A stretch of 64,000 bases of DNA, taken from the NCBI GenBank assembly GCA_963828195.1, contig CAWHDT010000007.1, positions 64,001 through 128,000 on the forward strand. Reading direction: 5' to 3'. The DNA comes from Candidatus Bathyarchaeota archaeon (GTDB lineage Archaea; Thermoproteota; Bathyarchaeia; Bathyarchaeales; Bathycorpusculaceae). Below are positions 1 to 27,735 of this stretch, piece by piece (the stretch's first letter is position 1; every line of letters starts with the position of its first letter). The position numbers and the translations under genes were made by a program. The notes beneath the pieces are model-generated. The model did not search any database. It saw only the letters and a program-made list of their open reading frames with translations, and was not told the DNA's origin.

Positions 1-216
1 TACGATACACTGGGCCTAGCAATCGGCGCCGGATTAGCTATTGGCTTATCTTCCTTAGGCGCTGGACTTGGAATCTCCGCCGTTGGCAGCGCCGCCATCA
101 GTGCACTATCTGAGAAGCCTGAAACTTTCTTTAGGAGTTTCTTGATTGTGGCGTTGTCTGAAGCCTTAGCTATTTATGGGTTAATCATGGGAATTCTACT
201 TTGGATAAAAATATAA
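1..216 (+). CDS. atpK: A/V-type ATP synthase subunit K (c), 3' part; truncated by window edge
   Basis: Manual frame-1 translation YDTLGLAIGAGLAIGLSSLGAGLG...SEKPETFFRSFLIVALSEALAIYGLIMGILLWIKI*: proteolipid hairpin with catalytic Glu. Confidence 0.9.
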   Translation, partial: YDTLGLAIGAGLAIGLSSLGAGLGISAVGSAAISALSEKPETFFRSFLIVALSEALAIYGLIMGILLWIKI

Positions 217-440
217 AAAGCAAGGGCGCTTTTGGGCATGCGTGCTGTATTCGTTTTTTCTTGAACAAGAAAGATAAGTAGCTATACTGCTGACCTTGAG
301 AATTTCTACATAGTCCTAATTAATTTCTTTCCGGTTTTATTTCTCTGGAACTAAACTTAGGAAAATAAAATTGGTGAAAAAACCGCAATCTTTTAGACCG
401 ACGCTCGATAACTTAAATATATGAAGTTACTCCTGATGAT

Positions 441-959
441 TTGTCCGTGAGTGATAATGACTTATCAAAAGTAGTTTGGCTTGCTTTTTTGGTTGTCCTC
501 TTAGCTGCCGTCGTGGCGGGTGCGGTGATTGGTTACAATTTGAAGCCTTCAACGACCTCAGTCGCCAGTGTGCCGAAAACCGCGGATATAACTTTGGTAG
601 TTCAAGGTGACGTGAAACTTGGTCCCGATGGTTTACTTCACGACGCTTTTACGCCATGCAACTTCACCGTCTACGCAGGACAAGAAGTGAACCTAACAAT
701 TATAAACTATGATAACGGAGAACATAGCTTTACTAGCCCAAGCTTGGGAGTGAACTTTGCGGTACCGCCAAGCAATGAAACGGGAGTTCCAACAGTGTCT
801 AATTACCAGTTTAACGAGGCAACAGCTGGCGTTTACCGTTGGTGGTGCACATATCCATGCGATACCGATGCAGGGGACTGGGCAATGATGACCGGCAGCG
901 ATGGGCAACCTGACCAGATTGGATACATGGGCGGATTCGTAACCGTCCTACAAGGATAA
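441..959 (+). CDS. Membrane-anchored cupredoxin-fold protein with atypical ligand loop
   Basis: N-terminal TM helix; EHSFT His; C-terminal GVYRWWCTYPC...AM...GYMGG. Confidence 0.7.
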   Translation: MSVSDNDLSKVVWLAFLVVLLAAVVAGAVIGYNLKPSTTSVASVPKTADITLVVQGDVKLGPDGLLHDAFTPCNFTVYAGQEVNLTIINYDNGEHSFTSPSLGVNFAVPPSNETGVPTVSNYQFNEATAGVYRWWCTYPCDTDAGDWAMMTGSDGQPDQIGYMGGFVTVLQG

Positions 960-1105
960 ACAACTAATAATTCGCAAATGTAGTCGCATCAAAAGGATTA
1001 AAGGATGAACCTTCAAACCTTTTCTTGTCTGAGGAAAAGACACTCTCAACTTATCTTTATGAAAATATGTTTGAAAATGAAAAAAGCCCTAAGATGATCG
1101 ACTAA

Positions 1106-1510
1106 TCATTCTTTCGCGTCTGTTATCATGACTGAGAATTTTATTTGTTTAACTGGCTTGTTGGCTTTTAGTCCGTCAATGAGGCTTTTAAGCCGCTCGG
1201 AGGGTCCTTTTACCGCCATAACCTCAAGGCAGCTTGTTTCATTTAGATGCGAGTGCAGATATGCTGCAATCATGTCTCCGTATTCATGCTGCAGGTGGAA
1301 CAATTCTTCATTTTGCTCTGTCTTCTCATAAAGAACGGTTATGGTGGCTATCACGTTTCCTTTGATTTTGTCTAATTCGTTATATTCTGTAATGTAGTTT
1401 CTGACAGCTTGCCTGATCACTTCGGATCTGGTCGCAGAGTGCTGTTCACCTAAAACACCATCCAACTCTTTGAGCAGTTCCTCAGGCAGTGAAACGCTAA
1501 TTATTTCCAC
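1106..1510 (-). CDS. nikR: NikR-family ribbon-helix-helix metal-responsive regulator
   Basis: IISVSLPEELL..LD..RSEVIRQAVR RHH domain; LQHEY, HSH and CLEV match the NikR His/His/His/Cys site. Confidence 0.85.
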   Translation of the reverse strand: MEIISVSLPEELLKELDGVLGEQHSATRSEVIRQAVRNYITEYNELDKIKGNVIATITVLYEKTEQNEELFHLQHEYGDMIAAYLHSHLNETSCLEVMAVKGPSERLKSLIDGLKANKPVKQIKFSVMITDAKE

Positions 1511-1656
1511 GTAATTCTCCTCAACAGCTTATTGTAACAAGATGTTTAACTAATAAATCGTCTTATGCCACGTTGGCTTATGCACCATTAAGATGAGTGG
1601 TTCTAAATGATTTAGTTTTGATTTTCTTTTGCTCTGTCCAGCCAAAAACTGCGTGG

Positions 1657-1688
1657 AGTTATTAAAAAATGAGTAAAACTTAATAACT
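1657..1688. promoter_or_regulatory. Candidate NikR operator
   Basis: Perfect inverted repeat AGTTATTAA-N14-TTAATAACT between divergent nikR and the ABC operon. Confidence 0.55.
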
Positions 1689-1725
1689 TGGGCTGACTAC
1701 AATGCACATATAGGCAGATTAGGAT

Positions 1726-2721
1726 ATGCGGAAAACAACATCTATAATTATTGCAGTAATCTTGGTGGTGTTAATTGTGGGAGGAGCCTTCACAGGCATA
1801 TATCTCTCAAAACATTCAACCTCTACAAGTTCCACTGGAGTGACTGGCACTACGGGAGTGACCGGCACTGCAAGTTCTAATGGAGTGATAAAGATAGTTG
1901 CCGCTGAAAATTTCTGGGGCAGCTTAGTATCTCAACTTGGAGGAACAAAAGTTAATGTGACGAGCATCGTTTCAGACCCCAATACTGACCCTCACGAATA
2001 CGAAAGCAATGCCGCTGACGCCATAGCAATCGCAAATGCCCAATTCGTAATTGTCAACGGAGCCGGATATGACACTTGGGCTCTTCAGCTGATTTCCGCA
2101 AGCGCTTCTTCAAATCAAGTTGTCTTAAACGTCCAAGAACTCATCAACCAAACAATTGACGCTAATCCCCACTTCTGGTACAGCCCCTACTATGTGAATG
2201 ACACTGTAGCTGAGATGTACAAAATCCTCTGCGCCATCGAACCATCCGCCACCTCATACTTTACACAGCAGTATCAAATATTGAAAGATGGCAACGGCCC
2301 TAATGATATATCGCTTAGCACATACAACGCGCGGATTGACGAGATAGCGCAAGATTTTGCCGGCACAAAGGTAGGATCTACGGAGAGCATCTTTGTGTAT
2401 CTCGCGAACGCCACCGGTCTTGACCTAGTGTCTCCTCCTGCATTCATGGAAGCCGTCGCAGAAGGAAACGATCCCCCAGCGCAGAGCGTCGTACAGTTCG
2501 ATAATCTCATTACGAATGGAACCATCACTATGCTGGTCTACAACGAACAAACTGTGACGCTGCTCACGACGAGCATCAAAGCACTAGCTGCTAAATATGA
2601 CATTCCGATTGTTGGAGTGACAGAGACTATACAGCCGCCGGATGTCTCGTTCCAAACTTGGATGAATGCTGAGTTACTCGCAATTCAAGACACACTTAAC
2701 GCAAATGCCCTTGGTCAGTAA
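1726..2721 (+). CDS. Zn/Mn-type (cluster A-I) metal ABC transporter substrate-binding protein
   Basis: VAAENFWG, DPHEYE, NPHFWY motifs; N-terminal TM anchor with Thr/Gly linker. Confidence 0.9.
   Translation: MRKTTSIIIAVILVVLIVGGAFTGIYLSKHSTSTSSTGVTGTTGVTGTASSNGVIKIVAAENFWGSLVSQLGGTKVNVTSIVSDPNTDPHEYESNAADAIAIANAQFVIVNGAGYDTWALQLISASASSNQVVLNVQELINQTIDANPHFWYSPYYVNDTVAEMYKILCAIEPSATSYFTQQYQILKDGNGPNDISLSTYNARIDEIAQDFAGTKVGSTESIFVYLANATGLDLVSPPAFMEAVAEGNDPPAQSVVQFDNLITNGTITMLVYNEQTVTLLTTSIKALAAKYDIPIVGVTETIQPPDVSFQTWMNAELLAIQDTLNANALGQ
1834..1869 (+). repeat. 18-bp imperfect tandem duplication encoding TGVTGT x2
   Basis: actggagtgactggcact / acgggagtgaccggcact. Confidence 0.7.
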
Positions 2722-2723
2722 AT

Positions 2724-3521
2724 ATGACAGAACAATACGAAATCATAAAGTCCGAGAATCTGGTGGCGGGCTACCCAGGCAACGTAGTTTGGCGAGACGC
2801 CAATTTCGCCATTAACCGTGGCGAGTTTGTTGCTGTTATCGGTCCTAACGGAGCAGGCAAGACAACTATGTTTCGTTTGCTCCTTGGGCTACAAAAACCT
2901 ATCAGCGGCACCCTCAAGATATTCGATGAAGCGCCTAAACGCGGCAATCCGCAGATTGGTTACGTTCCTCAGCGTCATATTTTCGATGGTGAAACGAGTG
3001 TTGAAGCTTTTGAACTTGTGCGGCTGGGAGTCTCCGGTACACGATGGGGTTTAGGCCTGTTCTCCAAAAAAGACCACAAAGCTGCTTTGGACGCGCTGGA
3101 AGGTGTTGACGCGACAGATTTGGCTCATCGTTCCCTCAGCGTGTTGTCGGGCGGGGAACTGCAAAAAATATTTTTAGCCGAGGCACTTGTAAGCAACCCC
3201 TCTATCCTATTGCTTGACGAGCCGCTGTCGAATCTTGACATGCGACGCGAGAGAGAATTACTACAGCTTATACACAAAGTAGTTCAATCGCGCAACGTAA
3301 CTGCACTGCTGATAGCCCACAACATCAACCCTCTTTTACCATACCTCGATAAAGTGGTCTACATAGCTAACGGCAAAGTAGCGACTGGAACACCACAAGA
3401 AGTCCTAACATCGGAATGTCTCTCGGCACTATTCGGAGTACAAGTCGAAGTCCTCAAGGATTCGAGAGGTAACATCGCAATCGTAGGAATTGAAGACTGC
3501 CACGGGTGCCAACCAGAATGA
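2724..3521 (+). CDS. Metal ABC transporter ATP-binding protein (ZnuC-like)
   Basis: GPNGAGKT, LSGGE, LLLDEP, GYVPQR. Confidence 0.92.
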   Translation: MTEQYEIIKSENLVAGYPGNVVWRDANFAINRGEFVAVIGPNGAGKTTMFRLLLGLQKPISGTLKIFDEAPKRGNPQIGYVPQRHIFDGETSVEAFELVRLGVSGTRWGLGLFSKKDHKAALDALEGVDATDLAHRSLSVLSGGELQKIFLAEALVSNPSILLLDEPLSNLDMRRERELLQLIHKVVQSRNVTALLIAHNINPLLPYLDKVVYIANGKVATGTPQEVLTSECLSALFGVQVEVLKDSRGNIAIVGIEDCHGCQPE

Positions 3522-4387
3522 CCTTAACATCATTGTCTACTTTATCTTCAACCTTTAGCTATAATCCAATTATCGATCTGCAACGGATTTTTCAATTTGC
3601 GTTCATGCAGCACGCCTATGAGGCAGGAACAGTCGTCGCAATCGTCGCGGGCATTGTCGGCTATTTCATTGTGATTCGTCGTTCCTCATTCGCAGCGCAT
3701 GCACTCTCCCACGTCGGTTTCACTGGGGGAGCGTTTGCCGTATTAATCGGCATCAGCCCCATTTACGGTCTTCTCATGTTCACAAGTATTGGCGGACTTG
3801 GAATAGCCGCGCTTGGTCGGAAGGCTTCCTCGCGTGACGTCCAGATCGGATCGGTTCTCGCATTCATGCTCGGTCTAGGCGTGTTGTTCCTCAGCCTCTA
3901 TACTGGTTATGCAACCGAGGCGTATTCGATCTTGTTTGGAGAAATATTAGGCGTCAGTTATACCGCTGTTCTTTTGACCCTCTTTGCTGGCGCGATAATT
4001 CTGGCGGTTACCGCGGTGGTATATCGACCACTCTTGTTTTCATCGCTTGATGAAGATGTTGCTGAAGCAAAAGGAATGCCCGTACTTTGGCTCGGCGTAA
4101 TTTTCATGCTTCTGGTAGCAGTTGTAACGTCATTTGCGGTCCAGGTCGTTGGCGTCCTGCTCATTTTCGCATTGATGGTCACGCCAGCCGCAACTGCTCA
4201 ATTGTTGGCAAAACGGCCGCGGCAAGTCATAATTCTTTCGGTAATCATTGCTCTGTTAGCAACTTGGTTTGGGCTTTTCATCGCGTTTTATACACCCTAC
4301 CCCGTTAGCTTTTTCATATGCAGCATAGTGTTTTTCTTTTACTTGTTTGTAAGATTCGTCTATAGAAAAATTAGGCCTTTGGCCTAA
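3518..4387 (+). CDS. Metal ABC transporter permease (ZnuB-like)
   Basis: HALSHVGFTG, ILFGEILG, VVGVLLIFALMVTPAATA; ATG at 3518 overlaps the upstream stop (ATGA). Confidence 0.9.
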   Translation: MTLTSLSTLSSTFSYNPIIDLQRIFQFAFMQHAYEAGTVVAIVAGIVGYFIVIRRSSFAAHALSHVGFTGGAFAVLIGISPIYGLLMFTSIGGLGIAALGRKASSRDVQIGSVLAFMLGLGVLFLSLYTGYATEAYSILFGEILGVSYTAVLLTLFAGAIILAVTAVVYRPLLFSSLDEDVAEAKGMPVLWLGVIFMLLVAVVTSFAVQVVGVLLIFALMVTPAATAQLLAKRPRQVIILSVIIALLATWFGLFIAFYTPYPVSFFICSIVFFFYLFVRFVYRKIRPLA

Positions 4388-4434
4388 TTTTTGAGAAAAA
4401 GCACTTTTTCTAAGAATTCCGTTAAATCAAATGT

Positions 4435-5085
4435 TCACGGGTTAATTACCACGTTGCCCCACATGCCTAGTGTGACGTGACCTGGAACTTGGCAGATGTA
4501 GTAAAAGTCGCCTGATTTGGTTACTTTAAAAATGATTGATGCGGTTTGGTTCATTTCTATGGGGACTGAGCCGCTGTCGATTTGCGCGCCGAACAGTACT
4601 TTGGCGGATGTTTGGTTTGTGGTTGTTAGTGCCCAGTTATGAGGCATGGTTCCAATGTTGATGACTGTCATGTTTACTACGTCGCCGACGTTGAAGGTTA
4701 ATGTCGGACCTGGTGAGGTTATGGTGTTTGAGCTGTTTCCAAATCCGTATAGGGTTAAAGTGTTACTAGCATAGAGAGTTACTGAAACGTTGGGTGGAGG
4801 CAGAGGTGGGGTTGTTCCAACGCCTGTGAACACGGCAGCCGCCAGCAAAACGAGGACTGCTAAGGCAGCGAAGCCTGCAGTTAAGAGTTTTTTGCTGACT
4901 CCAGGGTTTTGCTCATAAAAAATGTAGACAAGCAACGCAAACGCAATAAGTTCGGCGCTCATGAGGAAGCCGAAGACTCTTTGTTGAGATATAAAATCCA
5001 AAAACCATATCGAGATTCCCACAACAATCAGAAAAGTTAAGAGGAAAAATGCAATCAAACGTAGTGGGTCGCTATTGTGTGTCAT
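4435..5085 (-). CDS. Multi-TM membrane protein with C-terminal type-1 blue copper (rusticyanin/sulfocyanin-like) domain
   Basis: Three TM helices, then SPGPTL, MPHNW and YICQVPGHVTLGMWG (His/Cys/His/Met); start 5085 or 5124. Confidence 0.8.
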   Translation of the reverse strand: MTHNSDPLRLIAFFLLTFLIVVGISIWFLDFISQQRVFGFLMSAELIAFALLVYIFYEQNPGVSKKLLTAGFAALAVLVLLAAAVFTGVGTTPPLPPPNVSVTLYASNTLTLYGFGNSSNTITSPGPTLTFNVGDVVNMTVINIGTMPHNWALTTTNQTSAKVLFGAQIDSGSVPIEMNQTASIIFKVTKSGDFYYICQVPGHVTLGMWGNVVINP

Positions 5086-5386
5086 TGTTTTGTCTCTAGA
5101 GAGAGCGGTATTTACTGCAACCATAAACGTTTTCCCCTAACATAAAAAGCATAACAATAAGCACTCTTTAAGAGAAAACAAGAGCTTATTTAATGCTATG
5201 GTCTCAGGTACCAATTGTTTTAGCACTTAAAAATAGTTCTCAACTGCGAGACCGCTCTGAACAGGATATCAGATAGGGCAATTTCGCCAACATATTTCAG
5301 CACATAATATTGGAAGAGGCAGCGCCCCCGCCTTCAAACTGCCAGCGTTGGCGAATTATAAAATTAGCAGGATAAAAAAAGAAAGA

Positions 5387-5974
5387 TTATGATTTAACGA
5401 ATTTTGGTCTGATTTTCTGCCGCACCACGAAAGCTGACAAAGCGGTTATTGCAAGCGCAACGAACATCAATGCCAAGGCTGAAGGAAACTCAGGAATGGT
5501 TGGAGTCGGAGAGGTGCTGGCGGCTGATACTACTACGTTTCCCCACATGCCAAGTGATATGTGGGCTGGTACTGTGCAGACGTAGTAGAAGTTGCCTGTT
5601 TGGGTAGGAGTGACAGTGGCTGATCCTGAACCTCCAGCTGGAATGTAGTTGGTTATGTCAATGCCTGAGTTCCACAAGGGTGAAGTGCTTGCTGCTTTGG
5701 TCGGGACTATTTCGAAGGAATGTTGCATGGTGGAGACGTTGTTTACTGTTATTGTATATGTTGTGCCTTCCACTAGAGTTAATGTTGGTCCAGGCGAGGT
5801 AATTTTGCTTGAGCTTAGACCGTACCCATAGGTGCCTGAGCCTGTTGTCACTGAACCTGCATACAGGGTTATTGAATTTCCAGAAATCTGCGCCTTAGTT
5901 GTCGTCGCCGTCAAAGTAGATAATAAGCCTATTACAAGTATTAGAGTAAACACTAACCAAATTCGGTTTTTCAT
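5387..5974 (-). CDS. Secreted type-1 blue copper protein with PEF-CTERM-like C-terminal anchor
   Basis: Signal peptide; MQHSF and YVCTVPAHISLGMWG; tail PTPTIPEFP + TM helix + basic residues. Confidence 0.8.
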   Translation of the reverse strand: MKNRIWLVFTLILVIGLLSTLTATTTKAQISGNSITLYAGSVTTGSGTYGYGLSSSKITSPGPTLTLVEGTTYTITVNNVSTMQHSFEIVPTKAASTSPLWNSGIDITNYIPAGGSGSATVTPTQTGNFYYVCTVPAHISLGMWGNVVVSAASTSPTPTIPEFPSALALMFVALAITALSAFVVRQKIRPKFVKS

Positions 5975-6138
5975 AATTATCCTCTTTTACTCAGCTAGTT
6001 TAATTCAATTGTTTTAAAAAGATTTGTTGTAGTGCATATACAGTCACAATACCGAAATTATTTGCCTCGACTTGCCTAATAACACTGAATGCTTTCAGCG
6101 GCTCCGGTTTTATCTACACGTTTTCTTGACCGGAACGT

Positions 6139-7005
6139 TTAGATGAGCACGATTTTGTCGATGATTAGCCCCATCATCAAGCAAGTCAAATAGGGCATTG
6201 ATGCAATAAACACTTTAAATCCCTGTGTTTCAGAGGAGGAAAATAGTAATCCGCGGTTTCGGAACAAAAACGTGACGCCCGCCGCCAAAGCAACTGCCGT
6301 ATAGATTATGCCAGTTAAACCGAAAAGTACGAATAGAAACGAGGAAGCAACAGTTAAAACATTCAACCAAAAAACAACCTGCGACGTCTTTACTATGCCA
6401 ATCTTCACTGGAAGCATAGGAATCCCCGCAGCCTTGTATTCCTTCACTTTTTTAATGGCAAGTCCCCAAAGATGACCTGGCGTCCAAAGAAAATCCAGCA
6501 TCGCAACAAGAAAGGGCATTAAACTAAGCGTATTGACGGCGGCTGTCCAACCAGCAAGTCCCGCAAAACAGCCAGCGAAACCGCCTATAACCACATTCCA
6601 GGGGCTGGTGCGCTTTAGCCAAACAGTGTAAATAAATAGGTAAAAGACTGTTCCAAGACCGAGCATCAGGCAAGTCATGGGGTTGAACAAGAAAAAAGAG
6701 AAGGCGAAGCTTGAAGAAATCATTGCCAACCCCAATATCAGTGCTTCATTTGATCTCACTTTTCCGGCAGGAATTGCCCTTTTCGAGGTGCGCGACATTA
6801 ATTTGTCAACGTCTCTATCATAGAAGCTGTTTAAGACACCGCAGCCTCCAGCAGCTAAATAACCTATAACAGCGAACAAGGCAAGTTTAAACCAGGAGAT
6901 AGCAGGAAACACAGCAAGCACAAAGCAAGTGACTCCCACCAGCAAATTTAGTAGTGTCACCTTAGGCTTCGTTAGTTGAAGATATCGGTTTATTTTTTCC
7001 CTCAT
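6139..7005 (-). CDS. cyoE: Protoheme IX farnesyltransferase (heme o synthase)
   Basis: LTKPKV, NSFYDRDVDKLMSRTSKRAIP, YTVWLKR, WTPGHLW, EYKAAGIPMLP. Confidence 0.93.
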   Translation of the reverse strand: MREKINRYLQLTKPKVTLLNLLVGVTCFVLAVFPAISWFKLALFAVIGYLAAGGCGVLNSFYDRDVDKLMSRTSKRAIPAGKVRSNEALILGLAMISSSFAFSFFLFNPMTCLMLGLGTVFYLFIYTVWLKRTSPWNVVIGGFAGCFAGLAGWTAAVNTLSLMPFLVAMLDFLWTPGHLWGLAIKKVKEYKAAGIPMLPVKIGIVKTSQVVFWLNVLTVASSFLFVLFGLTGIIYTAVALAAGVTFLFRNRGLLFSSSETQGFKVFIASMPYLTCLMMGLIIDKIVLI

Positions 7006-7055
7006 AATCAGATTCTCTCAAAATACAAAATATGTTTACATACGTTTTAGAACCG

Positions 7056-7574
7056 TTAAGGAAACGCTGGGCCAGTTACTGAGCTCACTATGACTGCGCC
7101 ATACATTCCGTCCGCTGTATCATTGCCAACGGGGGAGATGTACCAGTAATCAAAAGCCTCATTGTTTGGAGTAAAAACAACCGAGCCTTCTTGTCCCGGC
7201 TGAAGAGGGTTGCTTGCTGAACCAATCACGGCGCCGAATAATACTGTGGCATCTGCAATGGGCATGGTGGTTATTGCGAAGGCGTGCGGCAGCTTTCCTA
7301 CGTTTATTACGGTGAGGTTAACGAGGTCTGATGTGGAGAATCCAATGGTCGGTCCAGGCGAGGTCAGGTTGTCTGCTGCCGCGCCGAATCCAAATTGGCC
7401 GTCGGGCATTTCTCCTTCGTAGAGTACAATATTTGACGGAGTCCTAGTTGAGACGTGGGTTACCAATTTAGGCTGAATATTGAAAATCAGCATAGATATC
7501 GCTCCGAAGAAAAACGCGAGCGCAAGAATCCCTATCAAGATGAGGGGCAGATAAGCTTTGAGTTTGCTTTTCAT
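7056..7574 (-). CDS. Membrane-anchored cupredoxin-like protein lacking the Cys and second His ligands
   Basis: SPGPT, LPHAF and GMYG retained, but ligand loop reads YWYISPVGNDTADGM. Confidence 0.7.
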   Translation of the reverse strand: MKSKLKAYLPLILIGILALAFFFGAISMLIFNIQPKLVTHVSTRTPSNIVLYEGEMPDGQFGFGAAADNLTSPGPTIGFSTSDLVNLTVINVGKLPHAFAITTMPIADATVLFGAVIGSASNPLQPGQEGSVVFTPNNEAFDYWYISPVGNDTADGMYGAVIVSSVTGPAFP

Positions 7575-7587
7575 TTGTTCATCACAT

Positions 7588-7860
7588 TCACATAGACATT
7601 GACATCCAAGCTGCAACAGCTAGAATTATAACGCCTAAAACGGCAGCAATCGGCAAAAGAGCTAAACTTTTGTTTTCATACCGCAGATGCTGAAAGTACA
7701 TTGCTATCGTTACAGCTTTACCCGAAGATATCAGAAGAATAACCCCCGATATGACAGCGAACGTTCCAGGTAGTGACCGCGTCATTACTTCTGTCACGGT
7801 TGCTGCTACAAGTCCAGCCCAAATTCCCACATAAAATTTCATTCCATGCATGTTTTTCAC
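7588..7860 (-). CDS. Heme-copper oxidase subunit IV
   Basis: Three TM helices, KAVTIAMYFQHLRYE motif, position in the cox operon. Confidence 0.85.
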   Translation of the reverse strand: MKNMHGMKFYVGIWAGLVAATVTEVMTRSLPGTFAVISGVILLISSGKAVTIAMYFQHLRYENKSLALLPIAAVLGVIILAVAAWMSMSM

Positions 7861-8634
7861 CTAAATTAAATAGAAGAGTGGAAAGAGAAACATCCAAACG
7901 ATGTCGACAAAGTGCCAATACAAACCGATGTTCTCGACGGCTGAATGGTTAGTCTTAGTGAATCCTCCCTGATAGGTTCTAACGATCAAGTAACTAACCC
8001 CCACCAAACCCCCAACTACGTGAGCCGCGTGCAAACCCGTCAGCACGAAATAAGTTGAGCCTGGTAACCCACTGCTTATGGTGAACCCATGTCGGTAGTA
8101 AGCGGGCCATTCAATTCCCAGTTTTATTGCGAGGAAAGCGACGCCTAAGCCAAATGTGCTGAATAACCCGATTTTTAGTCCCCTTATATTGCCCGCTCTA
8201 ATCGAGACAAGCGCAAATATCATCGCTAAACTACTTGTAAGCAATACAATCGTATTAGTCATTCCAAGCATCACGTTGTGCACTTGAGTTGCCACCGGCC
8301 ATGAACCGCTTGAGAATCGAACAAAGATATAGGCAATTATGAGCGACCCAAAAATCAGAATTTCCGACACGAGAAAAATCCAGACGCCCAGTCTTCGTTT
8401 GTCCAAAAATCCAAGCGGCCACTTCTCCTCGACAGATTCTTTTAGATCAGCAAATTTCCCTTCAACGCTGTCCCTGAACAAAGTGAATACGCCAATAGCC
8501 AAAACCACTGCACCTGCAATTGCCAGTGGAATATAAACCACCAAGCCGAAAAGCAATAATGCAACTCCCGCGGCAACTATCAGCGGTGTAAAGGAAGATT
8601 TTTTCTCTTCAGGGCCATCGTAATTTTCAGTCAA
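7861..8634 (-). CDS. coxC: Heme-copper oxidase subunit III
   Basis: [34 protein letters not shown]. Confidence 0.93.
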
Positions 8635-10313
8635 TTTTTATCCTCCATAGTGTTATTTGGGGAACCATTTTTGTCGGGATAATCAACTGGCTTTTCTGCA
8701 GTTTTACAAGTACCATCTTTACACCAGTACCAGCGGTCCTCCCGCGTTTCTTGAGGCAGATTATCTTCTGCGTGAACGGCGTTGTCAGTGGAGTTAGCTG
8801 TCTGAGTTGCTGTCGAACCATGGTAGTTCTGAGTCCACTCCAGCTCTTGAGCATCCCACGGATTAGCGTTGGGCATCGCAGGTTTTCTCAAGCTTAAAAT
8901 CAAATTCAAAACTGCTAGCGCCGCAGCGGGACCAAATATGTAAGCGCCGAAAGTGGCAATTAAGTTTAGGTTTGCAAAACCTGAAGCAACAGTGTAGGTT
9001 TGTATTCTTCTGGGCATGTCTAAGAGAAAGAAATAGGGGAAATACAGAATGTTGAAGCTTATGAAGGCCACAACGAAAGTTATGACTCCGAATGTTTCGT
9101 TGGGTTTTCTTTTAGTGATTTTCGGCCACCAATAATAGAGGCCAGCCAATAACGCAAAAAGGGTTGTTCCAGCCATCACATAGTGGAAGTGACCTACTAT
9201 CCAGTAAGTTCCGTTAAACGCATAGTCCAAAACTGGGAATGCCTGCAGAACTCCTGTTATTCCGCCCAGAGTTACAGTGAAAATGGCTGCTAAACAGTAC
9301 AGCATCGAGGTGTTCAGTGTAATTTTGCCTTTGTACAGAGTTAGCACTAGGGCAAGAACCAGCCCTTCAAAGGGCACAGAAATAGCCAACGTAGTGAAAG
9401 AGAACGTTTGCAAAACGCTGTAGTTTACGCCAGTTGTGTACATGTGGTGCATCCAGACGCCCATACTTAGAAAAGTCACGGCTGCAAATTCGATGAGGAA
9501 CACGTTTTTTGAGAATATGGGTTTCTTTGCGAACGTTTGGAAGACTTCGGCGATTACTCCTAATGCTGGGAAGACGACTATGTACACTTCAGGGTGCCCG
9601 AAAAACCAGAAAAGCTCATCCCACAAGATGCCGCCGCCTTGGGTTGAACTGAAGAACACTGTACCAAGAAACCGATCGCTCGAAAGAAGTAAGAGTCCTG
9701 CTGCTAAAGGCGGGAACGCGAAGAGCGCCAGCGCCATCGTGAAGACGATTGACCATGTGAACAGCGGCAACCGCCTCCAAGTTACTCCTTTGGCTCGTTT
9801 TATGGCGATGGTGGTGAGAAAGTTAATTGAGCTCATAGTTATGGAAAGAGCCAGAAGCAAGATTCCAAGCACCGCCAAAGTCATTCCTGGTTGAGGCGTG
9901 AACTCTATGGTGTTCAGAGGCGCGTAGAGCGTCCAGCCAGTGTTTGGTCCGCCGCCTGGCAGAAAAACGGTGCTTACCATCATTATGCCGCTGAAAAGGT
10001 AAGTCCAGTAGCTTGTCGCATTCATGCGCGGGAACGCGAGATCCTTTGCACCTATTTGAAGTGGCACAATATAATTTGCAATTCCGGCGCCGAGAGGTGT
10101 GAGGACCCAAAGTATCATTAATAGGCCATGCAAGGTAACGGTTTGCTCGTAAGTGGAGGGCTGGAGAAAATTGTTCATTGGAACGGCAAGCTGGGTTCTC
10201 ATCATTTCTCCAAACATGCCTGCTATAGCCATGAAGAATATGGCTGTTACAATGTATAGAATGCCTATCTGCTTATGGTTAGTTGTGGTTAACCATTCTT
10301 TGATTGAAAAAAC
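8631..10313 (-). CDS. coxA: Heme-copper oxygen reductase subunit I, A1 type; start uncertain (about 10304-10313)
   Basis: Six His ligands (LHG, GHPEVY, WMHHM, GHFHY); [11 protein letters not shown]; frame stays open upstream of ATG 10232 through conserved [14 protein letters not shown]. Confidence 0.95.
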
Positions 10314-10320
10314 CGCCCTT

Positions 10321-10995
10321 TTAGCCTCCTGAATTTGATGCGCTTATAGCCAATTGGGTGGCAAGCCACTGATTATATTCGGTTTGATTAACAACAAGCA
10401 TTGTTGCATCCATGAAAGTGTGTCCGACGCCGCAAAGTTCTTTGCACTCGATGTTGTACGTGCAAACTTGGTTTCCAGTTACCGCTGGCGTTGTTATCCA
10501 TAAAATGTTGTATCTGCCAGGTATCGCCTCTATGCTTACCTTGAACTCTTCCAGGTAAAAGTTATGCATAACGTCTGCGCTTGTAACGTTAAACATTACA
10601 GGGGTGTTTCCAGGCAAAGTCATGTTATCTTGGGTTATAACGCCCTCTGGATACCCAAAATTGAAACCCCATTGAAAGCAAGTTACGTCAATTACCAAAC
10701 TTTTGGAGACTCCAGCTGGCTCAAAGCGTGGATTAGGAGTAAGGCTGTAGGATGCCGCGACCAAACTGACCAATATTATAATGGAGATTGAGGCAAAAAT
10801 CAAGCTCTCTCTGGGGCGGCTTTTTTTCAAGCTGAAGTCTGGAATAGATTTGGCTTGCCCTTTTCGTTCGCGGTATTTTACTATAAAAAAAATCATTGCG
10901 CCTATAACAATCGCCAACGCAATTAACGCTGTGGTAGCGGCTAAATCGAAGAAATGATTCCAATCTGAAGCCGAAACTGGTATTGGTTGTGACAT
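10321..10995 (-). CDS. coxB: Heme-copper oxidase subunit II with CuA site
   Basis: Two TM helices, FQWGF, DVMHNF, CKELCGVGHTFM; no fused cytochrome c. Confidence 0.95.
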   Translation of the reverse strand: MSQPIPVSASDWNHFFDLAATTALIALAIVIGAMIFFIVKYRERKGQAKSIPDFSLKKSRPRESLIFASISIIILVSLVAASYSLTPNPRFEPAGVSKSLVIDVTCFQWGFNFGYPEGVITQDNMTLPGNTPVMFNVTSADVMHNFYLEEFKVSIEAIPGRYNILWITTPAVTGNQVCTYNIECKELCGVGHTFMDATMLVVNQTEYNQWLATQLAISASNSGG

Positions 10996-11302
10996 ACGAA
11001 ACTCCTAATTTGGAAGTCAAAAATCAAAGTAAAGCCAGGATTGACGTGGAACCCATAAGCTTATTGAAAAGCTACTAAGTTACCGCATGTACCCAGTTTA
11101 CAAGTACTAATCAGAAAAGTTTGGGGTTTAAAGCTGTGTGGCTAGCTTAGTACAGTCACAAGTTATGACTTGCTACTTTGGTTATTGTTACCACTCGGCA
11201 GTCTACATGCCAAGCGTAGAGCTAAAAAGCTTGTAAGGATAGAGTTTCAAAACTCTTTTATGATGACGCCCTCTTCCGTGGCGTTCGGCTGTTGAACTCG
11301 TA

Positions 11303-12229
11303 TTATTTTATTGACCTGTTACATCCGGGGCAAAAGACGGTATCCTTCTCAATTGGAGAGTTGCAGTGCTTGCACATGGATTTTGAAAAATGCGTTAGCC
11401 CCGAAGGCGAGGTTCCGTGAGCTTCTGCTTCTTTTCTTGCTTTGCGAGCCCCATCGATTCTTCCCGCAAATAACGTTGCTGTTTCAAACACAAAAACAAA
11501 CGGCGCAAGCATGATTAAGCCAGTGATAGGGGTTGGGTCTGGGCCAAAAATCCAGATTAACATCAAGATTGCCACGTAGATGATAATTTTGTTTCTGCCT
11601 CTCAAAAACTTCATTGGAAAAACTCCCACATGAACCAGCATAACAATAAAGACGGGGATGGTGTAGAAAACGCCGCAAATTATGAACAGGGTAAAAATCC
11701 AGTTGTAGAAATCTTTGATGAAAAACAGTGGCATTGATCCGCCTTGCAATGTAAAATACATCAATATTCTGAATGAAATTGGAACTACCAGGAAATATGC
11801 CATAGTTGCCCCTAATGACAGGGTGCCAATGAACGCTCCTAAGTAGTATCCGAGAACTTTCTTTTCGTTAGCATAAAGTGCAGGTTTAACGAAAGCAATG
11901 ATTTCATAGAATATTACTGGGGAAGCCAACAGCAATCCAATAATAATTGACAAGTACGCCATAACAAACACGGTGTCAGCCATACCGCCAGCAATCAGCG
12001 TCGCGTGGCTAGGAAGAAAAACCGCCTTAATCCTAAGCATAACAAGCGATAGAAGCGGCTGATAATCTCCAAATGGGCTAGTTATCCCAGCTATGCTGGT
12101 CGGCAACCAACCGATAGAGATTGTAACTACAAGAGTAATTAACACTACTTTGCCGCGGCGCACCAGCTCATCGACATGCTCCCAGAAACTTAAAGCCCAA
12201 CCCTTAATTGACGCAGATTCAGTACTCAT
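11303..12229 (-). CDS. tatC: Twin-arginine translocase TatC with C-terminal zinc ribbon
   Basis: SFWEHVDEL, FVKPALY..EK, GPDP; tail CKHC...FCPGC. Confidence 0.88.
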   Translation of the reverse strand: MSTESASIKGWALSFWEHVDELVRRGKVVLITLVVTISIGWLPTSIAGITSPFGDYQPLLSLVMLRIKAVFLPSHATLIAGGMADTVFVMAYLSIIIGLLLASPVIFYEIIAFVKPALYANEKKVLGYYLGAFIGTLSLGATMAYFLVVPISFRILMYFTLQGGSMPLFFIKDFYNWIFTLFIICGVFYTIPVFIVMLVHVGVFPMKFLRGRNKIIIYVAILMLIWIFGPDPTPITGLIMLAPFVFVFETATLFAGRIDGARKARKEAEAHGTSPSGLTHFSKSMCKHCNSPIEKDTVFCPGCNRSIK

Positions 12230-12411
12230 AGTTATTCAAACCTTGAAACAAGTAGAGAGCGACGCGCCATCGCTTGTAGCAACCTTCGCGGTGACAAACT
12301 ATATGTTAATTAACGAACCATAAAACAAAAAGTGGGAGCCGAGCTTAACCGCTCCTTGAAAATTTATTGTTTCATCTGCCTTTTTACCCGAAAAAGAAAA
12401 CAACGAAGCGT

Positions 12412-12750
12412 TTATGCTGCGCTTAACAGTTTAACTTTCACGGATATGTCGTTGGATATTTCTTCTCTGGTTTTGCCGTCGGTTGAAATTCCAAGTCTCT
12501 GCGCAGTTTCAAGCAATATTTCATCTTTAGTCTTTATTGTTGTTGCAAGTTTAGGCGCAGCGGCGGCTCCAACTGTGGCTGTTGCTGCTGACCCTGTGCT
12601 AGCTGCATCCATGAATTCTTTCTGTGCATTCGCAAATTCACCTTTAGCCCTGCCTAATGCTCGGGCAAACTCTGGAATCTTTGCTGGACCCCACATTATA
12701 ATCACAATGGCAACAATACCGACGATAATCAGTTCCCATCCATCAAGCAT
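12412..12750 (-). CDS. tatA: Twin-arginine translocase TatA/E
   Basis: GWELII...WGPAKIPEFARALGRAKGEF. Confidence 0.9.
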   Translation of the reverse strand: MLDGWELIIVGIVAIVIIMWGPAKIPEFARALGRAKGEFANAQKEFMDAASTGSAATATVGAAAAPKLATTIKTKDEILLETAQRLGISTDGKTREEISNDISVKVKLLSAA

Positions 12751-12872
12751 TCTAAAAAATCTCCTTTCTTCTTATTGTAATTAAACCTCTAGAAATAAAG
12801 TTCATAAATACATTTGTTGGTGTGAGTTAACAACCACAATCGATTGCTAGGCTGGCTATTTAAGCAAGATTT

Positions 12873-13466
12873 TCAGGTTGACAGAAGAAATAATCCAATT
12901 TCTGCAAAAAGGTTTGGCAGCAATCTGACCGCGCGGTTTTTTCTTACAAATGCCGAAGCTTCAATACAGATGTTATTTTTTCGGCAATACTCTTTGAAGT
13001 CGGCGATGCTTAAGAAATGCAGGTTTGGCGTGTCATACCATTCGTAAGGCAACGCTTTGGTGACTGGGACTCTTCCTTTGAAGAATATTTGGAGCCTGGC
13101 TGGGGCTTGCACGAAGTTTGGGAAGCTGACAATGACCTTTTTTCCCACGCGCCGAGCCTCTTTCAGGGCGAAATCTGGTTTTTTCACTTGCTGCAGTGTC
13201 TGGTTTAATATGACGTAGTCGAATGAGTTGTCTGCGTATTCGGAGAGGCCTGTATCTATGTCTTGTTGAAAAACGCTTAATCCTTGAGCTATACATCGAT
13301 GAATGGCGATTTCGCTTAGTTCTATGCCCTGAGCGTGCACATGCTTTTCTTTTATGAGAAGAGCTAAAAGTTCTCCGTCGCCGCATCCAAGATCAAGCAC
13401 GGAAGAGCTGCCGCTAACCCATTTTAGGATGATCTCGTGCTCTGCTTTTCCCGTTGCCTGACTCAC
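12873..13466 (-). CDS. metW: Methionine biosynthesis protein MetW
   Basis: [32 protein letters not shown]; follows metX. Confidence 0.92.
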
Positions 13467-26958: not shown

Positions 26959-27735
26959 TTGCAGGATAAAAGAAAGTTTAGAACAAGAGCATCCATTCTT
27001 GTTGTTATTTGGGTTATTTTGCTAGTGTTATCTTTGCTTTTGCTGTCGATTCTGTTTTCGCTGTTTGCCAGTAACCCTGAAAGCGAAAGCATTTCAAGCT
27101 TAAGTTGGGCTGGCTACATCACCACGAAAAACGCTAACCCCCAGTTCGAGGTCGTGGGCATATCATCTTCATGGACTGTTCCCACACTTAACGATACGGC
27201 GGCTACAGGGTATTCTTCTGCTTGGATTGGAATTGGAGGTCAACTGGACAAAACCTTGATTCAGGCTGGAACCGAGCAGGATGTGGTAAACGGGCAGGAG
27301 AACTACTATGCGTGGTACGAGTTACTTCCAAGTTTTGCTATTCAATTAAGAACCTTAACAGTTTCCCCAGGGGATACAATAGTTGCATCGATAAATCTGG
27401 TTAATCCAGGCACAAACCAGTGGAGCATACAAATAAGTGACACTACAACGGGACAAACCTTTGGCAGAGACGTCCTTTACAATTCCACCCGCTCCTCTGG
27501 AGAATGGATAGTGGAGAGACCGACAATAAACGGTCAAGTCAGCCAGTTATCTAACTTCGGAAACACTACTTTTTCAAATTGCCGAATAGACGTAAGCAAC
27601 ATCACTGGTTCAATAACGAAGTTCCCGTTTTCTAAAATAGAGATGGCAGACAGCCAAAGTGCCCCGTTAACCTCAGTCTCAAATCTCAGCCCTGACGGAT
27701 CAAGCTTCACCGTCAGTTATCTAGCAAACAAGTAA
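26959..27735 (+). CDS. Membrane-anchored G1-family glutamic endopeptidase
   Basis: SWAGY, SAWIGIGG, LIQAGTEQD (catalytic Gln), SGEWIVERP (catalytic Glu). Confidence 0.88.
   Translation: MQDKRKFRTRASILVVIWVILLVLSLLLLSILFSLFASNPESESISSLSWAGYITTKNANPQFEVVGISSSWTVPTLNDTAATGYSSAWIGIGGQLDKTLIQAGTEQDVVNGQENYYAWYELLPSFAIQLRTLTVSPGDTIVASINLVNPGTNQWSIQISDTTTGQTFGRDVLYNSTRSSGEWIVERPTINGQVSQLSNFGNTTFSNCRIDVSNITGSITKFPFSKIEMADSQSAPLTSVSNLSPDGSSFTVSYLANK

Follow-up and report, generated by a model that had tools for sequence, protein, structure and literature searches.

The question raised by this locus is how electrons reach a terminal oxidase in an archaeon whose genome shows no recognizable cytochrome c. 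We analysed a window of 64,000 nucleotides from Candidatus Bathyarchaeota archaeon (NCBI GenBank assembly GCA_963828195.1, contig CAWHDT010000007.1, positions 64,001 to 128,000 of the forward strand), in which the genes for four proteins of the cupredoxin fold, here called cup441, cup4435, cup5387 and cup7056, accompany those of a haem-copper oxidase. An earlier note on this DNA had read all four as a cytochrome-c-free copper wire, layered from the cell surface to the membrane and possibly fed by an extracellular donor. Bathyarchaeia are usually regarded as anaerobes, and the names of its relatives place this organism, whose genome amounts to 2.83 megabases on 9 contigs and is 96% complete, among the Bathyarchaeia of soil, peat and bog. 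On balance we consider it likely, with some room for doubt, that the locus encodes the oxygen end of a respiratory chain without cytochrome c in a soil or peat Bathyarchaeia archaeon, and that cup7056, the cupredoxin inside the oxidase operon, would have been kept there as a non-redox subunit. Hereafter G000 denotes this genome, C5, C9 and the like its contigs, and G184 its nearest relative.

The oxidase itself is encoded on the minus strand by coxB (subunit II, 10321..10995), coxA (subunit I, 8631..10292, with the listed open reading frame (ORF) starting at 10232), coxC (subunit III, 7861..8634; PF00510, 95 bits) and coxD (subunit IV, 7588..7860; PF03626, 39 bits). CoxA scores 416 bits with the COX1 family PF00115 and carries the catalytic motifs GHPEVY, HHM and GHFHY, and the six CuA ligands of CoxB (H144, C184, E186, C188, H192 and M195) are invariant in 27 of 27 sequences. 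Subunit I motifs and a CuA site of the form H...C-x-E-x-C-x3-H-x2-M together mark an A-type haem-copper oxidase, and the equivalog models stay under their cut-offs (520 versus 670.75, and 142 versus 147.7 bits, the latter for CoxB with TIGR02866). Because CoxB retains all six CuA ligands, the enzyme is expected to need a protein donor.

Directly downstream of coxD lies the gene for cup7056 (7056..7574, minus strand), followed by ctaB, which codes for haem O synthase (6139..7005, minus strand; TIGR01473, 251 bits, cut-off 210). A scan of species-representative genomes yielded 36 loci, 29 of them of the Bathyarchaeia type, and these comprise 6 of type A, in which the operon cupredoxin carries Ser/Asp at two ligand positions, and 23 of type B, which are sister operons with Cys/His. 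The association between cupredoxin and oxidase that the earlier note had proposed is conserved, in that the related loci likewise have the operon cupredoxin flanked by coxD and ctaB. Of the 29 Bathyarchaeia loci, 27 show the full order coxB-coxA-coxC-coxD-cupredoxin-ctaB, and the remaining two are short contigs carrying the cupredoxin-ctaB end. A further cupredoxin lies within 10 kilobases (kb) at 18 of the 23 type-B loci. Downstream of ctaB, a cupredoxin of the PEF-tailed clade described below is present at seven of eight type-A loci (the six of the scan plus the window and G184), the eighth being a 3.9-kb contig.

What could donate electrons to this enzyme? The earlier note had seen no CxxCH protein in the locus, and a six-frame translation of window positions 1-13000 likewise gave 0 matches. 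Genome-wide, the cytochrome c families PF00034 and PF13442 have zero matches, the c-type maturation family PF01578 reaches at best 14.6 bits (cut-off 29.9), and the CxxCH motif occurs in 38 ORFs as a single copy and in zero ORFs more than once. Contig C5 instead carries an operon for a fusion of cytochrome-b5-like, TAT-signal and Rieske segments, a cytochrome b, a cupredoxin, a UbiE-like methyltransferase and a UbiA prenyltransferase. This b5-Rieske/cytochrome b operon, including the UbiE-like and UbiA genes and with a Cys/His cupredoxin of 216-223 residues and three transmembrane (TM) segments, is conserved at 7 of 7 complete loci, from type-A and type-B genomes alike. The C5 cupredoxin (C5:852676-853206) is 84% identical to cup4435 (4435..5124, minus strand), a type-1 cupredoxin anchored by three TM segments, with its His/Cys/His/Met ligands intact. 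In G184 the gene order of the window is kept without cup4435, and because the gene is absent from the equivalent position there, we regard cup4435 as a genome-specific extra copy of this complex-III subunit.

From this gene content we infer an order of carriers. Quinol would be oxidised by the Rieske/cytochrome b complex encoded on C5, whose own three-TM type-1 cupredoxin, or its intact copy cup4435, would stand in place of cytochrome c1. The next carrier would be the secreted, rusticyanin-like cup5387, in the role of a mobile cytochrome c and probably held at the membrane surface by a PEF tail processed by an archaeosortase. From there electrons would pass to CuA of CoxB and then to the haem-copper site of CoxA. 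In this scheme cup7056, ancestrally a type-1 copper subunit, now most likely serves the oxidase as a subunit for structure or docking, without a redox role. A route from quinol to oxygen in which cupredoxins would replace cytochromes c1 and c is well supported at the gene level. The copper wire of the earlier note accordingly survives in outline, given the absence of matches to cytochrome c families in the genome, the intact CuA site and the Rieske/cytochrome b operon with its cupredoxin, and it loses cup7056, which lacks a blue copper site.

That all four ORFs have the cupredoxin fold, as first noticed from the letters, is confirmed by Pfam and NCBIfam models (the Pfam families matched are Copper-bind, Cu-oxidase and Cupredoxin_1), by AlphaFold2 (AF2) models with a predicted local distance difference test (pLDDT) score of 85 for cup7056 and 82 for cup441, and by Foldseek. 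A hydropathy scan also upholds the different anchors, with one N-terminal TM segment in cup441, three in cup4435 and one in cup7056; cup5387 has a signal-like segment at its N terminus and an IPEF motif, TM segment and basic tail at its C terminus. A segment said to be common to the last three is indeed present in cup4435, cup5387 and cup7056 (GFGNSSNTITSPGPT, GYGLSSSKITSPGPT and GFGAAADNLTSPGPT), with a gap of five residues, not four, so that the pattern reads G(F/Y)G-x5-(I/L)TSPGPT. As had been suspected, the three are genuine paralogues, with 30-43% identity and BLAST E values of 1e-11 to 1e-24, but their expansion is not recent. A recent local duplication was considered for them and rejected, every class having orthologues in other genomes in the tree; the sole recent duplicate is cup4435, copied from the gene on another contig. 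Between cup441 and the other three there are zero BLAST matches, so it is not their paralogue.

Judged by their ligand residues, the window cupredoxins are not four equivalent blue copper proteins. The type-1 set His...Cys-x(n)-His-x(n)-Met is complete in cup4435, cup5387 and the C5 and C9 paralogues, the last from a second oxidase operon discussed below. It is incomplete in cup7056, which has His, Ser, Asp and Met, and in cup441, which has C-x3-C and no loop His. Assignment to the known donor families fails by a wide margin in most cases. With the rusticyanin model TIGR03095 (cut-off 146.7) the three window paralogues score 41.0, 35.5 and 22.5 bits and the C5 and C9 copies 36.2 and 40.6 bits, and with the sulfocyanin model TIGR03094 the cupredoxins reach just 18.2-22.6 bits (cut-off 168.4). 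On the Pfam family SoxE (PF06525, cut-off 21 bits) cup5387 lies just over the threshold at 21.9, cup4435 under it at 19.1, and the C9 copy at 27.2 bits. The sulfocyanin motif FNFNGTS, as given in PMC3750248, was not found in any of the six cupredoxins.

The case for cup5387 (5387..5974, minus strand) as the donor to CuA draws on its intact ligands and its relatives. Its closest solved sequence is rusticyanin, to which it aligns over the whole domain (residues 28-149, E 2.4e-8) and with which it has a C-x4-H-x4-M ligand loop in common. The tail TIPEFPSALALMFVALAITALSAFVVRQKIRPKF comprises a PEF motif, a TM helix and a basic cluster, and the proteins so tailed form a clade of 8 rows with support 100 in our tree. 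About 17 ORFs of the genome end in a PEF motif, TM segment and basic tail, and two genes of the archaeosortase family (C4:36959-38188 and C1:236195-237259) both score above threshold with PF09721 and with the TIGR04178 signature (71.8 and 47.4 bits, cut-off 23). Named archaeosortase types are below their cut-offs (archaeosortase C, 24.9 and 42.4 versus 100; thaumarchaeosortase, 80.8 versus 250). We take cup5387 to be the likely CuA donor. In the PEF-tailed ORFs, of which C8:82734-83870 and C1:374423-375439 are examples, a linker rich in Ser, Thr and Pro precedes the motif.

The operon cupredoxin cup7056 departs from this pattern at the heart of the copper site. Comparison of its segment YWYISPVGNDTADGMYG with YYICQVPGHVTLGMWG of cup4435 reveals Cys replaced by Ser and the second His replaced by Asp, and with these two ligands gone the protein is predicted to be unable to hold a blue copper site. 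The AF2 model retains the cupredoxin fold, and Foldseek matches it to the cupredoxin domains of laccases (E 3e-9). A search with cup7056 gave 205 relatives, and among the best 120 cluster representatives, on which the following figures rest, Ser with Asp occurs in 61, Cys with His in 51 and other combinations in 8; every full-length relative at least 58% identical to cup7056 has Ser and Asp. The first His is invariant in the 61 Ser/Asp rows and Met is present in 57, with two of the remaining rows ending before the Met column. Further changes are fixed near the site in this group (Tyr to Trp, three residues upstream; Ser to Phe; Gly to Ala; Ser to Ala), and a C-terminal G-x-A-x-P extension is added, with few other differences.

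Ratios of nonsynonymous to synonymous substitution rates (dN/dS) among seven Ser/Asp genes (the window and L001-L006) range from 0.09 to 0.27 with a median of 0.14 over 19 of 21 pairs, two pairs with saturated dS having been left out, and by this measure cup7056 is under purifying selection. We considered that cup7056 might be a decaying pseudogene, which the dN/dS values and the conservation over 61 cluster representatives rule out, and that the Ser/Asp state might be a sequencing artefact, which is excluded by the same two observations and by matching contigs; contigs from other runs span parts of 7056-7574 with zero differences. Compared with the window, the DNA contigs of four sequencing runs have zero insertions or deletions.

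In a tree of 55 rows the operon cupredoxins fall into a single clade (support 99), within which the 7 Ser/Asp rows are monophyletic (support 98) and 19 Cys/His rows make up a neighbouring group (support 98). Two further rows with Cys/His branch off at the base, and a long, unresolved branch, L026, reads Ser/Asp/Leu. Because the basal and sister branches carry Cys and His, the ancestral operon cupredoxin is reconstructed with a normal type-1 copper site, and the swap would have happened once in this lineage, with L026 as a possible second event. Matches to cup7056 are found in 48 of 120 genomes of the genus, 8 of them of type A, with at least 63% identity, and about 24 of type B, with 47-57%, and this is the sole genome of the 120 that has both types. 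Its second oxidase operon, of type B (G000:C9:48829-53568, L038), has a cupredoxin that keeps Cys and His. Across a sample of the class, 41 of 301 genomes have oxidase subunit I as such, including 34 of 43 from one other family and 3 of 48 from the family of this genome.

The remaining cupredoxin, cup441 (441..959, plus strand; PF13473, 27 bits, equal to the cut-off), had been counted as a member of the wire; against this, it lies beside the oxidase just here and in G184, and at seven loci of its relatives away from the oxidase there were no respiratory neighbours. Its conserved residues H67, H95, C136, C140 and M149 make up the ligand inventory of a CuA site in a different order. H67, D68, H95, C140, D141, W147, M149 and M163 are invariant and C136 nearly so in an alignment of 69 rows. 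Among solved proteins the cup441 profile best matches, with an E value of 9e-4, the CuA domain of N2O reductase, on whose His, Cys and Cys ligands H95, C136 and C140 align, and the leading Foldseek matches of the AF2 model are the Cupredoxin_1 protein 4hcf, nitrosocyanin and CuA domains. The genuine CuA loop C-x3-C-x3-H-x2-M with an upstream His is lacking, the loop His being absent and the Met standing 8 residues after the second Cys. Its 120 close relatives likewise belong to archaea of this kind. Extended to E <=0.001, the family counts 612 representatives at 50% identity, and His, His, Cys, Cys and Met are kept in 125 of 148 aligned rows. Among 43 representatives of at least 200 amino acids (aa), the domain architecture of 27 showed just tandem copies and one fusion to a MerR-type helix-turn-helix (HTH) domain (P0355). 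A protein atlas search with cup441 returned just unnamed Cupredoxin_1 clusters, and we found no functional description of the family. By sequence, cup441 represents a separate, putatively CuA-like cupredoxin family. At three of the seven loci away from the oxidase (L044, L046 and L048) a second cup441 subfamily recurs as the last member of a trio, after genes for a NosD-like beta-helix protein and an F420_oxidored-like protein; an Rpb5-domain gene comes next.

Several observations weigh against the chain as we have drawn it. The cupredoxin of the Rieske/cytochrome b operon (C5:852676-853330, L037) is frameshifted within its first TM segment, and the coxA of the C9 operon lies in two overlapping frames of 103 and 453 aa, owing either to a frameshift or to faulty assembly. 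Because both genes are split between two frames, some parts of the chain may be defective or mis-assembled; cup4435 is intact, and the working copy may be this one, beside the oxidase. The coxA of the window has no canonical start codon (ATG, GTG or TTG) before TM helix I. At the coxB/coxA junction (10232-10320, minus strand) the coxA frame is open upstream across that helix, and the relatives start with ATG, TTG or GTG just before 'VFSIKEWL', where the window has GTT. This anomaly is not an assembly slip, because the junction reads identically in an independent short contig (run X3, record 24, positions 10110-10355), and translation may in fact begin at a rare codon, for instance the ATC in 'TCA ATC AAA'. 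Pfam searches of the whole genome gave zero matches to haem A synthase CtaA (PF02628), even though both oxidase loci have a ctaB gene. The tail of cup5387 scores just 11.3 bits (E 0.32) on TIGR03024, for which the cut-off is 23. Finally, the invariant His and the Met conserved in 57 of the 59 Ser/Asp rows that reach its column would be unexpected in a purely structural relic and fit the survival of some metal site in cup7056.

If such a site survives, cup7056 could be a type-2-like copper protein with His, Asp and Met as ligands and Ser nearby, acting in electron transfer or substrate oxidation without a thiolate. Both replacements are potential oxygen ligands, not arbitrary residues, they are fixed down to about 58% identity, and the conserved change from Tyr to Trp accompanies them. 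A natural precedent is FtrB, a cupredoxin that is without the His/His/Cys set, needs an Asp to bind Cu2+ and oxidises Fe2+ (PMC11966278). We nevertheless judge this explanation improbable. Engineered azurins deprived of the Cys thiolate take up copper just with particular replacements, and an intact type-1 cupredoxin, which always occurs nearby, could carry out the transfer. A broader proposal, which we rate no higher, is that the type-A operon cupredoxin constitutes a natural, conserved non-thiolate metal site (His/Asp/Met plus Ser, with the newly fixed Trp close by) in a rusticyanin-like scaffold, a counterpart of the engineered Cys-free copper azurins, and that it arose with the spread of the cup441 family, the two jointly re-wiring the delivery of electrons or copper to CuA in aerobic soil Bathyarchaeia. 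The leading literature matches on type zero copper and cupredoxins include no natural Ser/Asp cupredoxin. Whichever role cup7056 has, what is new here is that a ligand-swapped subunit is conserved and that it co-occurs with cup441, and a non-redox structural or docking role is the one we prefer.

Slightly less probable again, in our estimation, is that cup7056 or cup441 would be a copper chaperone that loads CuA or CuB, and neither an electron carrier nor a structural subunit. In favour of this role, SCO1/SenC (PF02630), PCuAC (PF04314) and CtaA were not found by Pfam in the whole genome. Furthermore, cup441 is TM-anchored, offers CxxxC with His and Met, adjoins a NikR-family regulator and a metal ABC importer, has the copper chaperone CupA, itself of cupredoxin fold, among its Foldseek matches (at rank 36), and has one relative fused to a MerR-type HTH. 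It is present in 12 of 120 genomes of the genus, comprising all 8 of type A and, among the other 112, just 2 complete and 2 fragmentary cases. Against this, type-B genomes mostly build the same CuA site without cup441, its relatives outside this genome and G184 are not near an oxidase, and the co-occurrence may be a single inherited event because the 8 type-A genomes form one clade. The original idea that all four cupredoxins make up a layered surface-to-membrane relay, into which an extracellular donor, for instance Fe(II), would feed electrons, is, to our mind, the least credible of these explanations. In its favour, cup5387 is predicted to be exported and tethered at the surface and has rusticyanin as its nearest solved relative, bog and soil metagenomes contain related DNA, and sulfocyanin and rusticyanin-like proteins have been proposed for iron oxidation in acidophilic archaea (PMC3750248). 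However, one member, cup7056, has no blue copper site, a complete route from quinol to the oxidase is present without an outside donor, and no gene of the locus suggests electron uptake from outside, so that the extracellular donor finds no backing. Likeness to rusticyanin is no mark of iron oxidation, because the complex-III subunit is equally rusticyanin-like. The chain from quinol through cup4435 or its C5 counterpart and cup5387 to CuA thus remains the reading that we favour.

The NikR-family metal-responsive regulator (1106..1510, minus strand; NikR_C, 73 bits; NF002169, 117 bits) sits between cup441 and three genes for a ZnuA/ZnuC/ZnuB-type metal ABC importer (1726..4387, plus strand; Pfam ZnuA, ABC_tran and ABC-3). 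In G184 the regulator also adjoins cup441, at 94% identity, and the importer occupies the same position, at 80-85% identity. On the other side, tatC (11303-12229; PF00902, 116 bits) and tatA (12412-12750; PF02416, 43 bits), both on the minus strand, are directly upstream of coxB, a flank shared with L010/L042 at 77-82% identity. For the flanks (tatA, tatC and metW) and the PEF cupredoxin the best-matching genomes are ones with type-B operons (L010/L042 and L041; 77-83% identity), and for the oxidase core they are of type A (comparison of window 10321-12750). Because core and flanks thus have different nearest genomes, the sequences suggest that the oxidase core was exchanged inside conserved flanks. 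The remainder of the window contains archaeal housekeeping and pilus genes. A gene for a peptidase of the A4 family of acid proteases (window 26959-27735) fits an acidic habitat such as peat.

Together with the Rieske/cytochrome b operon, the locus provides a gene-level model of aerobic respiration without cytochrome c in Bathyarchaeia, one that takes in three anchoring classes of cupredoxin. Within it, the ligand-swapped subunit offers a natural experiment on the role of a cupredoxin after loss of the thiolate, and the cup441 family presents the CuA ligand inventory in a new order across its many representatives. Oxidase genes in a soil genus of Bathyarchaeia were reported by Hou et al. 2023 (PMC10321748), who liken them to those of S. 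acidocaldarius; the words 'copper' and 'plastocyanin' are both absent from their main text. Literature retrieved for Bathyarchaeia and cupredoxin included no item that, by title or abstract, concerns Bathyarchaeial respiration.

Comparison with known systems supports the view that a cytochrome-c-free copper chain is the version in this lineage of a known archaeal strategy. Blue copper proteins serve likewise in Sulfolobus, haloarchaea and ammonia-oxidising archaea. PMC3750248 describes a comparable strategy in Thermoplasmatales, with sulfocyanin and rusticyanin-like proteins, and the proteins of the window differ from the latter in falling far under the TIGR03095 cut-off. Rusticyanin of Acidithiobacillus ferrooxidans, as noted, is the closest solved relative of cup5387 and has the same ligand loop; the window proteins differ from it in their anchors (PEF tail, one TM or three TM segments) and in the absence of cytochrome c partners, and there is no sign of iron oxidation. 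The CuA domains of N2O reductase and oxidase subunit II share with cup441 an inventory of two His, two Cys and one Met, but cup441 has no His after the second Cys, its second conserved His lies about 70 residues upstream, its Met spacing is longer, and it has no Pfam COX2 match.

For cup7056 the nearest parallels concern the fate of the metal site. FtrB, the Cup-II cupredoxin of the FtrABCD iron transporter, also does without the Cys-containing type-1 set, with Asp and His as proposed Cu2+ ligands (PMC11966278); its context is an iron permease and not an oxidase, it has carboxylate Fe2+ sites as well, and the two are likened by ligand type, a sequence relationship having been neither tested nor seen. 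The cup7056 protein is a separate subunit of an oxidase whose CuA is intact. This sets it apart from CyoA of the bo3 quinol oxidase, a subunit II inside a haem-copper oxidase, where, as in the plant early-nodulin-like phytocyanins, the cupredoxin domain is kept and the fold selected for after loss of the copper ligands. Unlike in either of these, two ligand positions of cup7056 are conserved and the other two have changed fixedly to Ser and Asp. A close analogue of the whole chain is the SoxM-type supercomplex of Sulfolobus with the sulfocyanin SoxE, likewise an archaeal chain without cytochrome c, in which the Rieske/cytochrome b module is joined to the CuA of subunit II by a blue copper protein that is anchored in the membrane and encoded together with the oxidase. 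The arrangement described here differs in that the Rieske/cytochrome b and oxidase genes occupy separate loci, up to three cupredoxin classes are involved, and the proteins of the window score just 18-23 bits on the sulfocyanin model and have no FNFNGTS motif. It also differs in the operon cupredoxin, which in this lineage is without its Cys and His ligands.

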